A stretch of DNA of 64,000 nucleotides from Saccostrea cucullata (taxonomy: Eukaryota): assembly GCF_032062105.1 (NCBI RefSeq), contig NW_026930361.1, positions 248,001 to 312,000 on the forward strand. Direction: 5' to 3'. The notes under the pieces are model-generated. The model worked only from the letters and a program-made list of their open reading frames with translations, did no database searches and was not told the DNA's origin. The position numbers and the translations under genes were made by a program. This document shows, piece after piece, positions 1-7,655 of this stretch (within the stretch, counting starts at the first letter, position 1; the number at the start of each line of letters is the position of its first letter).

Positions 1-2033
1 CCATTTGTCTTTCATGATCTTCAACCTCAGTGGCCCAGCTATAGGAGAACTTCAAAATATCTAACTTATCATCCTGAAACAGATCAAAATGTATCCATCA
101 AAAATTTTATACAAGCTTAATTCAATGGAAAAGATAATCACAATTAAGAGTTATGAAATAAATCCACCCAAAATTATTGCAGCACTGGAAAATACATGAC
201 AAAACCTTTGGAAAACTGTACTTACTAAACTTCTAACTGGCTCTCCCCCAAAATCCAAATATTCTTGTCTACAAAAAAAAAAAAAAAAAAAGAGACTCAG
301 CAAAATTCCTAAATACATATCAGCATATGATGATGTATATCAGCGGCTTTATTCTACTTCACGAATATGTTTTTAAACAAATCTGCCATTTAAAAATCCG
401 TTATTAAAGTGGAAAATTACCCATAAATGTTTTGTAATCTTCGTCTGACATCCACTGTTTCTGTTTCATTGTATCTGTATGTTCCAAAGGTTTCTTGCTT
501 GCTTTCTAGAAGGACAATATTGCAATTTATTTTATCTTTTAAAATTTTTTGTCTTCATGAAAACCCATAAGACGGCCCCATCTCTCTTTGTTTGTTATAA
601 ATATTAGCAGAGTTTCAAATGGCGCTCTTTTTCTTCACGTATGTAAATAAGAAAAGTATAAAAATGTTGCATTAAAGTCTTGCAATGATATGCATGTAGA
701 TAGTTTTGAATTTCTTGAATTGCAAACCATTTAATTTACTGTATCTATTTAAATAAATTTCTTCTCGTGGACATAATGGGGTTATGATTGTATTCATTTA
801 CCTCGGCTTTTCTTTCTTCTCTCTCTACCTCATCAACCCAATTGTAATTAAATTTTAATATATCCAACTTTTCATCCTGAATAAAAACAAAAAATCTACA
901 ATTTTGATTTTATTAATTCAAAGAAAGTTAAATAAATAACTTTTTAATAAATCATTTTACTGTCCAGTACATGGTTATTTTTTATATTTTGAATTACATA
1001 CAAAATACAAATACTTCATGTTTTTAATATACTTACTATATTTTTAACCGCCTCCTTGCCAAAATCCAGAATTAATTGTCTACAAGAAAAAATAATAAAA
1101 GTTTTAGAGAATATTTAACTATTAATTACTGAGTACATGGATTGCTTTAGCGTATATCAGTAACTTTCCAATACTAGTACATGTACATGTATTACCTATG
1201 GATGGTCTTATCTTCATCTGACTTCAGTTGTCTCACGACATCTGTTATCTCCAAAGGTTGCTTCTCTACTTCCTTGGAAAACAATTTCTTCATAATGAGA
1301 CCAGTATTGCTTAAGAAAAAGCTTAATGTCTTTAGGTTTATGGAGAAAAGCCATGCCATAACCTTAACGATTCTCCCTTTTCTTATTTAGAAAAAAAAAA
1401 TAAATTGTGATATCTAAATTATTATTGTGCTATTACATTTTAAAATAAAATCTTAATGATTTATTATTATCATTATTCATTAACGATTGACTGAATTGAA
1501 ATAATAAAAAGACAGAAATACTATATTTTTGTCAACATAAGCAATGTGTAATAAAAAAACCCTCTTTTCAAAACCGAAATAAATTTTATTTGTAACAATT
1601 TGTATACATTTTTACCTCCATTATCCTCTCTTCCCTCTCTACTTCTGCAGCCCAACTGTAATCAAATCTTAAAATAGCCAGTTTGGCATCCTACAAAAAT
1701 AATAAAACACGAATTTTTGAAGTTTGAAGATACAAGTACTCAAAAATGTTTTTGAAAATTTCTTTTATATACACGAAAAAAGTAACTGTGGCTTTTCAGA
1801 TTAATTGTTGAAATAACATTATTCACAAATAGCAACCATAGATGCTTACCACGTTCTTGACTGCTTCAGCTCCAAAATCCAACACAGCATGCATGCTTTT
1901 CTACAAAGGATATGAAATATGAAATGATAACCTTTAAAAAAAAATATGAAACTGATCTTTAAAAATCTGCAATTGAACTTACTACAGAAAAAAAACAATA
2001 GGTAGGGAATAAATTGTAACTTACCTCCGACAT
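1..2033 (-). CDS. Orphan repeat protein, tandem copy 1 (3' part runs off the window start)
   Basis: GT-AG exons read MSE / KSMHAVLDFGAEAVKNV / DAKLAILRFDYSWAAEVEREERIME / EVEKQPLEITDVVRQLKSDEDKTIH / RQLILDFGKEAVKNI / DEKLDILKFNYNWVDEVEREERKAE / ... / DDKLDILKFSYSWATEVEDHERQM. They match 3915-7655 exon for exon at an offset of ~5.4-5.6 kb, with open frames kept. Confidence 0.75.
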
Positions 2034-3914
2034 CGTTATTTACGTTTTGTTGTATGTAGTAACAATTGTTTCGTCACATCAATTGTTACGTTCGATATCG
2101 CAAGTTATTATGACGTCAGATACATGATTGCGTTGTGATTATGGCGCTAAAACTCGAAAATGAAAAATAAAAACTTTATATGTCTTTGAGGTGACTGCTG
2201 ACTTGTATAGTGTCTACTGACATACAGTTCATTACTTTTATATCAGGGTAATTTAGTGGCATTTAATTTTATTCCTTTATTTTTTTCATTTCATATTGAT
2301 TACAACATTACTACTGTACAGAATATTGTCAGTTTATTCAGCCCCTCCCCCCCCGCTCTCTCTCCCTCTCTCTGATTCAGTAATAATTACTATACATTTA
2401 TTGACTTATATAACATGCATTTTTATGGTCATACAAGCTGTCTGCATAGGCTGTTAGGCCGAAAAAAATATATTGACAGACAGAGAGCATATTGTCGCGC
2501 ATTGAACAAAAAAAATGTTTTGTTAAACCTTTTATTTTCTTTTTGGACATACATGTATCTTTTACACTCTTCTGTGATGTAATTTTAGGTCTGCCTATGT
2601 TTTTAAACACCATCTTGAAATATTAGCTCCGCCTATTGTGTGTTCCAACATCTCATTGACAGGTCCAACATTCAGCGGTCAAACTAGATATCCCAGTAAA
2701 AACAAAACACTTTTTTCTTATAATTCAATGATTTTTAAAACGTATAACAAACAAATTTGATATTTTTTTTTACATATCAGTGAATTCATTCAAACCTAGA
2801 TAGTTTGAAGAGTCTCTGTGTACCGACAAAAATAGAAATCGTCAAAAAACCAAAATCCGGGACCGTCTTAAGACTAGGTTTACCGGCTGCCCTGTTGTTA
2901 AGGTTTATTTTTTCGTTTGGCGTTTTTTTTATGTACGTTTGTTCTGCAAAGATGATCATTCGTTTTGCATTCATATATGTTTGTTACGTACGTGGTCGTT
3001 GGTTTTGTTTTAATGTATATTTGTTCTGTGAAAAAAGGTCTGAAGATTATGCATTATATATAATTTGTTCAGTTTTTATGGTCATACTAGTAGCTGCAGA
3101 ATTGTAGCTCTCCGGAAAAAAAATATTTTGACAGACCGGAGAGCTACAGTGTCGCCAATTGAAAAAAAAATGTATATTTATTGCACAGAAAAAAGTGCAA
3201 TTTTCTCGATTTATTTCTTCATGTTTTTAAACTGGCATCTTGAAATACCACTAACTGTGTGTTCCTGACGTAGTATTTAACTATTCCCATAACAAAACAT
3301 TCTTTATAATTCAGTGTTGTTAATAATCATTAATGAAATTTAATCAAACAACATATATTATACTTATTTGCAATTTTGGTTTGCAGATTTCGGTCTAACT
3401 TTGTTCTAACAAAGTAATAAATATAGAGGAGTAAGGATTTTTTAAATATAAGATTGGGGCTGCAGTCAGACAAATATATTATACTTATTTGTTTTAACAG
3501 ATTACTTATTTGTTCTAACAAAGTAATAAATATAACCATAAATTTAATATAAGATGCTGCTGCAGTCCTACTAAGTAAATATATATATGTGACATATTGA
3601 GGTACTTTCATAACAAGTCATAAACCGGCAATGCCGAGTGTTTGCCTCTAAATACCAGTTTGACACGAAGCAGTGTATACTTAGAAAAACTTAATAGAAA
3701 AGTTTTGATAAAATTGTTCAAATTGTTTGTGAACAAAATTATTGGAAAAGTAGTCTTGTCTTCAGTGTCTTGAATTCGTTTGGGATTACATAAATAACAA
3801 AACCCATGTACTCAGTAAATAGATGGCATTTAATTAAATAATGTTATGATGACAAACCATGAAATGAAATTAACAAATTCTTTATTTCTTTAATGTCAAG
3901 TCACTTGGGTCATT

Positions 3915-6900: not shown

Positions 6901-7655
6901 ATGAAATTTAGAGTAGTAGGTCGCGGAATTGCATGTGCGCGCGCAAAATACGCAAAATGACCAATATATTATCGCAAGCGAATAAAAGTCGGTTTACAGT
7001 ATTGTGCTATCCCAGTAATAAAATCTTAATGATTTATTATTATCATTATTCACACCCTCGCTAGCCAAGGGTTTTCGGTCCAATTCGCTCATGTCTAGCG
7101 TAGATGCATTATTTATTAACGATTGGTTGAATTGAAATAATAAAAAGACAGAAATACTACTATTTTTAACATAAACAACAATGTGTAGTGAAAAACCTCT
7201 TACAAAAAAACAAAATAAATTAATTTTATTCATAACAATTTGTATACATTTTTACCTCCATTATCCTCTCTTCCCTCTCTACTTCTGCAACCCAACTGTA
7301 ATCAAATCTTAAAATAGCCAGTTTTGCATCCTACAAAAATAATAAAAAAGTTTAAAGATAGAAATACTCAAAAATTGTTTTTAAAAAATCTCTTTTATGT
7401 ACATGAAAAAAATAATTGCGGTTTTCCAGCTTTATTGTTGAAACATTATTCAAAATAGCAATCTATTGTCAGACTGCTTACAACGTCTTTGACTGCTTCA
7501 GCTCCAAAATCCAACACGGCATTCATGCTTTTCTACAAAAGATATGAAATGATAAACTTAAAAATCTGGAATTAATCTTTTAAAAAATCTGCAATTGAAT
7601 CCACTACAGAAAAAAGCAATAGTAAGGGAAAATTTGTAACATATACCTCTGACAT
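3915..7655 (-). CDS. Orphan repeat protein, tandem copy 2 (~14 exons, ~350-360 aa, acidic with a basic C-terminal tail)
   Basis: ATG at 7655 (MSE|gt). Exons lie at approximately 7482-7532, 7256-7330, 6601-6678, 6459-6501, 6224-6298, 5933-6014, 5741-5780, 5361-5438, 5025-5236, 4794-4884, 4443-4517, 4075-4176 and 3915-3977, ending ASVSSKKSLRRRIKNFLGFK*. Phases agree except at one junction (5933 to ~5780), which needs an AAG acceptor 5 nt downstream of the TAG. Confidence 0.75.
6813..6999. mobile_element. MITE with TA target duplication
   Basis: TA|CTGTACACC...GGTTTACAG|TA. Absent from the paralogous intron of copy 1 (~1420), so the insertion site is directly visible. Confidence 0.75.

Follow-up and report, generated by a model that had tools for sequence, protein, structure and literature searches.

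The 64,000-nucleotide stretch of Saccostrea cucullata DNA analyzed here (positions 248,001 to 312,000 of contig NW_026930361.1, RefSeq assembly GCF_032062105.1; hereafter, the window) contains two tandem minus-strand genes, each with 14 coding exons and three copies of a tryptophan-centered motif, which are members of a real, selected and previously undescribed oyster gene family. The motif resembles the SBM (SLIP1-binding motif) carried by SLBP, eIF3g and DDX19. Judging from this likeness, we consider binding of the repeats to the SBM groove reasonably probable, and our tentative interpretation, held with slightly less than even confidence, is that the window genes encode multivalent, membrane-tethered competitors for the SBM groove of SLIP1/CTIF (or of PAIP1).

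Likeness of the repeats to the SLIP1-binding motif

A first-pass annotation of the window had proposed a gene assembled from tiny exons. Short exons with AG/GT ends were indeed found: all six motifs lie on the minus strand, one per exon of 75–78 nucleotides (nt), and each motif exon is preceded by a 36–51 nt exon with a DFGxE element. The placement given in that annotation is right for the six W-motifs quoted there as well as for the DFGxE elements, acidic region and basic tail, all of which are on this strand. Every one of the six motifs has W, V at +4 and acidic residues at +5 and +8. Since the strict pattern W-x3-V-[DE]-x2-[DE] has a single occurrence in 289,446 residues of a six-frame control translation, the six copies are not due to chance.

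The proposed likeness to the SBM is upheld by three tests (PDB profile, column conservation and matrix rank), which agree in suggesting that the family motif resembles it. A profile of 36 motif exons, searched against 177,635 PDB sequences at an expectation (E) value of up to 10, matched only 4jhk_C (E 0.055), the 22-residue chain C that is an SLBP peptide on SLIP1, and eIF3g (E 9.3); both are SBM carriers. The full-length profile A4 gave one chance match (E 4.4) and no SBM peptides in the same database, and the family protein P0060 gave no matches there.

According to PMC3763545, the SLBP–SLIP1 contact is centered on W94 and V98, with further contacts by N93, D96, E99 and E102 (of which D96, E99 and E102 are the acid contacts), and the motif positions of DBP5 are W6, V10, D11 and E14. 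Among 66 unique repeats from 55 database proteins, collected with an anchor pattern that fixed W and upstream positions but not V+4 or the acids at +2, +5 and +8, we found W in 65, V+4 in 64, an acid at +5 in 64, at +8 in 65 and at +2 in 59 (two of the six window motifs have the latter), while W, V+4, acid+5 and acid+8 occur together in 60. A small residue is present at +1 in 48 of these repeats and in three of the six window motifs, and positions +3, +6 and +9 to +11 are variable. The resulting consensus is [SN]-W-[ASV]-[DE]-x-V-E-x-x-E; of the W-x-x-E-V-E consensus suggested before, W, V and the following E are kept, but the E before V appears in only 22 of the 66. At the genomic level, 52 unique exons (59 minus those lacking an AG acceptor or containing a stop, with duplicates merged) have E at +5 and +8 without exception, using both codons, and W and V in 50 cases, a conservation inflated by the fact that exons were gathered by similarity to the motif. 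The expected preferential conservation of W, V and E was borne out: few positions vary as little as these, even though changes occur at synonymous sites. Finally, under a 10-column matrix (−1 to +8) the host eIF3g motif ranked first of 184,017 windows with 27.5 bits (family range 19.2–42.2) and the host SLBP motif third with 9.0 bits, both loci having been deliberately added to the scan. Host SLBP and eIF3g retain their SBMs.

Like the known SBM carriers (SLBP, eIF3g and DDX19), family members combine W, V+4 and acids at +5 and +8, usually also at +2, with N or S at −1. The family motif is predicted to start a helix within an otherwise low-confidence N-terminal region, but the upstream element next to it is conserved and helical as well. 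On the other hand, a known carrier combines a single motif with a functional domain, whereas the family has one to seven tandem copies and no known domain; its members add a basic tail and an upstream element that is invariant, and a single oyster holds dozens of such genes. The single SLBP locus of the host genome (G000:C9382) likewise has its SBM-like motif in the N-terminal half of the protein; family members, unlike SLBP, are devoid of the PF15247 RNA-binding domain (no Pfam families in any of the 10 members scanned). Descent from SLBP was rejected, as host SLBP has neither the DFG nor the KLxILxF element.

Viral mimics of MIF4G ligands offer another comparison, since these ligands, too, are short, acidic and helical and engage a translation factor: SARS coronavirus NSP3 occupies the SBM groove of PAIP1 (bioRxiv 2026.07.31.742013), and the norovirus VPg C-terminus binds eIF4G HEAT-1 (PMC4703368). 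A D/N-Y-x-E/A-x-L-x-F stretch like that of the VPg end, with similar spacing, is present in 15 of 66 repeats. In contrast to these mimics, the family consists of host genes with 13 introns, the W-to-V spacing of VPg differs, and the window copies have no DY stretch. A norovirus VPg-like eIF4G motif was rejected as a reading of the repeats (only those 15, none of them in the window). The same holds for two further motifs: PP1 SILK/RVxF, at odds with the family column counts, and cyclin RxL, which fits the second conserved motif of the family (see below) but meets cysteines there in one subfamily.

An oyster gene family with a shared 5' module

The window genes had been regarded as a duplicated orphan. 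Two tandem copies are indeed present, but they belong to a large family: a one-exon query of the genome returned 85 matching exons on 39 contigs in 47 clusters at E≤1e-3, and 149 exons on 73 contigs in 87–89 clusters at E≤10, these exon counts from a loose search being lower bounds, while uncollapsed haplotypes may inflate the number of genes. The latter number is uncertain, the assembly being split into 23,869 contigs and possibly containing both haplotypes. The size of the family, along with the exon 7 break, the second invariant element, the C-terminal motif, the 5' module and PAIP1 (all discussed below), did not figure in the first-pass annotation, which had suggested a profile search of the repeat.

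When run, the 36-exon profile retrieved 31 proteins out of 1.84 billion representatives, including one spurious repetitive match (P0027), which was dropped. Two word-index searches found 17 and 27 proteins among the 7,989 candidates that each of them scored. All species-named matches (30 looked up, plus the word-index rows) are from oysters, namely S. cucullata, S. echinata, Crassostrea virginica and C. gigas; several short metagenome frames among the matches resemble single exons. The family proteins (P0001–P0060, e.g. C. gigas LOC105337229 and C. virginica LOC111122280) have automatic names only. Those found in Crassostrea have one repeat and those in Saccostrea up to seven. A match of 6 out of 36 motif exons to the Pfam family PGPGW (E 0.022), the sole one seen, was taken as chance, and an ESM Atlas search gave no usable match. 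For several members RefSeq lists more than one isoform, usually a sign of transcript support.

The shared plan of the family comprises one to seven repeats, a variable acidic or coiled-coil middle part, an acidic stretch in which F-x-P-R-[RK]-L-F-[LF]-F-G forms a second conserved motif, and finally a basic tail; many of the database relatives also carry the F-x-P-R-[RK]-L-F motif and the tail. A divergent subfamily, P0030 and P0034–P0040, lacks LDFG, ends in a CC-containing tail and carries as many as seven repeats that are nearly identical.

Family genes also have a 5' module in common. Its cAMP response element (CRE) palindrome, TGACGTCA, lies roughly 85 nt upstream of each start codon and is followed by CGYAACAAT and by a second, CRE-like site (TGACG), and then by TCACTAYAAC about 35 nt before the first donor. 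The module pattern, which was derived from the family loci, has 24 exact matches in the 1.17 Gb genome (vs. 0 for the reversed control), of which 23 precede a same-strand family exon by 416–1,460 nt, and positions outside the pattern are also conserved. The palindrome TGACGTCA by itself is found at 35 places in 221,734 bp of family loci, as compared to 5 in 154,725 bp of controls. The module looks like a promoter of the CRE/ATF type that includes a SOX-like site. As far as its sequence goes, it would imply co-regulation of the family genes, be it in stress, immunity or the germline. Internal repeats, too, are preceded by the module at loci L024, L028 and L029, which suggests that whole promoter-plus-repeat units were duplicated there. 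With the exception of one close paralog and scattered repeats, the similarity among 36 loci was restricted to exons and the 5' module, with no shared flanks detected; therefore no carrier transposon is seen, although old termini could have decayed.

In the accessible portions of the literature on SLIP1/SLBP/eIF3g, MIF4GD/CTIF, oyster gene expansions and the CRE sequence in oysters, we found neither a multi-copy family built from the SBM nor any stand-alone multivalent SBM regulator, nor any paper on SLIP1, CTIF or MIF4GD in an oyster. Gene identifiers of the Crassostrea homologs were absent from the texts and supplements of the oyster papers searched, whose tables may use other identifiers, so that this has no bearing on expression. 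The motif itself is known, and the family would be a new form of SBM carrier if binding holds.

Gene models, the exon 7/8 junction and neighboring features

Copy 2 extends from 7655 to 3915 on the minus strand and is preceded by its conserved 5' module (7694..7740), the likely promoter. The coding part of exon 1 (7647..7655) covers three codons from the start codon. Repeat 1 is formed by exon 2 (7482..7532; LDFG element) and exon 3 (7256..7330; KLxILxFxY element and SBM-like motif 1), and exon 4 (6601..6677) is a linker. Exon 5 (6459..6501) carries the LDFG element of repeat 2 and exon 6 (6224..6298) SBM-like motif 2, followed by the exon 7 linker (5933..6014). Repeat 3 consists of exon 8 (5741..5783; FDFG element) and exon 9 (5361..5438; SBM-like motif 3). 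Exon 10 (5025..5236) is an acidic spacer predicted to be disordered, with low confidence in a paralog model, exon 11 (4794..4884) a further spacer, exon 12 (4443..4517) the one with the second conserved motif and exon 13 (4075..4176) another spacer; exon 14 (3915..3977) encodes the basic, probably amphipathic tail and the stop.

Copy 1 (minus strand as well) starts at 2033, behind a 5' module at 2072..2118, and ends 1.45 kb past the left edge of the window. The coding part of its exon 1 (2025..2033) agrees with the database protein P0009. Exon 2 (1850..1900) contains LDFG element 1, exon 3 (1616..1690) SBM-like motif 1, exon 4 (1196..1272) a linker whose AAG acceptor is likewise used by P0009, exon 5 (1037..1079) LDFG element 2, exon 6 (802..876) SBM-like motif 2, exon 7 (421..505) a linker, exon 8 (226..268) LDFG element 3, and exon 9 (1..73, ending 5 nt left of the window) SBM-like motif 3. 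Exons 10–14 are outside the window, to its left (G000:C12498:246547-247876). Intron 13 of copy 1 (locus L006, window coordinate −1291) has a GC donor, as opposed to GT in copy 2.

The three repeats and the tail had been described as parts of one protein, but they do not share a reading frame if the first acceptor of exon 8 is used. In both copies exon 7 ends in phase 1, whereas this acceptor requires phase 2, and both proteins then stop at 151–152 residues with two repeats. An AAG acceptor 5 nt downstream (exon 8 starting at 5778 in copy 2 and at 263 in copy 1) allows read-through to proteins of 356 and 359 residues. Thus, the third repeat and the tail of the window copies require either this weak acceptor or an assembly error, and without the AAG acceptor or a corrected assembly the window copies would make a soluble two-motif protein. 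As compared to the paralog at L010, one base is missing from each copy; both gaps fall in the final 7 nt of exon 7, but not at the same position. These two independent one-base losses (5933-5945 and 421-433) may reflect an assembly hotspot or have been tolerated via the +5 acceptor.

Comparison of copies 1 and 2 by the ratio of nonsynonymous to synonymous rates (dN/dS) gave 0.19 for the downstream motif exons (81 codons, p 2e-5), 0.61 for the downstream spacers (134 codons, p 0.10), 0.38 for all downstream exons (p 1e-4) and 0.40 for the exons upstream of the break (106 codons, p 0.06). The window copies are under purifying selection and, since exons past the break are still constrained, the break would be recent, rescued or an assembly error. 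A rather unlikely but compatible possibility is that the family is functional while the window copies are truncated or decaying, yielding a two-repeat protein of 143–152 residues or nothing. It would agree with the early stop upon first-acceptor splicing and with P0009, the database model of copy 1, which has 143 residues and ends after two repeats; besides, an AAG acceptor just 5 nt behind a TAG is a weak competitor. On the other hand, neither exon chain contains any other frame break or stop, the downstream exons have the low dN/dS given above, both losses fall where the +5 acceptor restores the frame at the cost of few codons, and P0009 itself uses an AAG acceptor at exon 4.

Elsewhere in the window, a multi-exon plus-strand gene (8200 to ~13900), which seems to resemble U2 snRNP A' (SNRPA1), starts 545 bp from copy 2 in head-to-head orientation, so that the two genes may share a promoter region. 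An SPSB-type exon with SPRY and SOCS-box is located at 19263-19982 on the minus strand. A plus-strand exon at 41163-41579, which looks similar to the transcription elongation factor TFIIS, had no match in a Pfam scan. A long terminal repeat (LTR) retrotransposon-like element at 57249-61855 has one open 1,373-residue frame with reverse transcriptase, RNase H and integrase, which lies between two identical 173-bp direct repeats; the element is probably a very recent insertion. Tandem repeat arrays occupy 11538-12978, 35265-36029 and 38229-39481.

Candidate partner, proposed mechanism and alternatives

The host genome has a SLIP1/CTIF-type gene, best matching zebrafish SLIP1 in the PDB; its locus (G000:C4773:10766-11014) was the only one of this type to surface in a loose search. 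The pocket was read from P0047, a protein of S. echinata that shows 98% identity across the tested exon and in which 6 of 10 pocket residues are identical (R76, L80, Q84, F87, L125 and P128), L83 is conservatively replaced by V, and R77, N81 and A124 are changed. The oyster SLIP1/CTIF-type proteins (P0047–P0050) appear to be short (272–273 residues), with an RG-rich start and with R77 replaced by N and N81 by R or K. The fact that oyster SLBP and eIF3g keep their motifs counts in favor of this partner. According to bioRxiv 2026.07.31.742013, PAIP1 also binds the DDX19 SBM; therefore, the partner is not necessarily SLIP1/CTIF and PAIP1 may equally be the one.

In the mechanism that we propose, the protein would be produced upon induction via the CRE-type module (or in restricted tissues). 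Two or more SBMs about 65 residues apart would span both sites of a SLIP1 dimer, which are 65 angstroms apart and can bridge two SBM proteins (PMC3763545), and thus provide avidity. The repeats would thereby outcompete the single low-micromolar motifs of SLBP, eIF3g and DDX19 for SLIP1/CTIF or PAIP1, and the basic tail would hold the complex on a membrane. We infer all four elements: avidity, competition, tethering, and induction or tissue restriction. As neither an RNA-binding domain nor any other folded one turned up, sequestration is preferred to activation. The tail had been claimed to be amphipathic, for which the Fauchere-Pliska scale speaks (moment 0.65, exceeded by ~5% of shuffles; 9 of 14 family tails at or below 0.055 in this test), while on the Eisenberg scale the window tail is no more amphipathic than shuffles. 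Some paralogs end in cysteine clusters.

Apart from the result on the Eisenberg scale and the exon gathering noted above, several observations weigh against such a competitor. The PDB E-values of the motif profile are weak; 4 of the 6 window motifs lack the +2 acid, and 3 of 6 have V rather than a small residue at +1. R77 and N81, the pocket residues changed in the oyster protein, are two of the three residues in a binding-dead SLIP1 triple mutant (same paper, PMC3763545). The exon 7 frame break affects both window copies, and P0009 stops after two repeats. In addition, the 52 exons show the same invariance at K, L, I, L, F and Y, which lie upstream of W, as at the SBM positions, and the KLxILxFxY element that they form has no counterpart in host SLBP or eIF3g, so that W and V could be the core of a helix-loop-helix. 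Both AlphaFold models have a short helix at the upstream element, a loop and a helix starting from W (predicted local distance difference test scores ~75–90), the remainder being unstructured with low-confidence linkers. With a 143-residue model, Foldseek gave no matches and a VIA fold search only generic helices (best Z 2.6).

The repeat may serve some other partner, either as a longer ligand or as a small folded unit. That the 40-residue unit is one such module (a folded hairpin or an extended ligand), with the SBM likeness incidental or secondary, we regard as unlikely, although the upstream invariance, the predicted fold and the altered oyster pocket would favor it. A class 1a nuclear export spacing also fits 44 of 63 repeats. 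However, a hydrophobic core would account for the invariant surface acids at +5 and +8 less well than SBM contacts do, the score of the host eIF3g motif falls within the family range, and the predicted template modeling scores are only 0.25–0.29. The same motif evidence would serve equally for a positive role in the same groove, a scaffold clustering SLIP1/CTIF or PAIP1 dimers on a membrane and localizing translation. The bridging capacity of the SLIP1 dimer and the placement of CTIF and PAIP1 at the nuclear pore by the DDX19 SBM (bioRxiv 2026.07.31.742013) favor this scaffold. We nevertheless consider it distinctly unlikely, given that the family has no RNA-binding domain to bring a message and that multiple motifs would occupy both dimer sites, excluding SLBP and eIF3g. 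Still less probable is that LDFG represents the G3BP-binding PhixFG motif, [FILV]xFG in bioRxiv 2021.04.19.440086, and couples stress granules to the SBM partner. The pattern is found upstream of W in 51 of 61 repeats, but it is common by chance (161 in 289,446 control residues), one subfamily has LDFS, and with the family matrix the UBAP2-type motif of the host comes no higher than 3,587 of 195,900. The host does have an NTF2 gene, which is presumably G3BP-like.

Returning to membrane-tethered competition, a broader and doubtful version would be an oyster-evolved, co-regulated family of membrane-held SBM sponges under one CRE-type module, shutting off SLIP1/CTIF- or PAIP1-dependent translation (e.g. 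of histone mRNA in gametogenesis or stress) or denying the groove to viral proteins. The SBM groove connects the translation of histone mRNA with cap-binding-complex translation and with mRNA export; the motifs that it is known to accept are single ones, from three host proteins. If true, the tandem-motif family would be a natural high-avidity inhibitor or tether for this groove, a counterpart of the 4E-BPs in this branch of translation, and a ready-made reagent for probing groove function. The rock-oyster expansion and the shared promoter module would then point to an unrecognized stress, immune or germline switch in a farmed animal.

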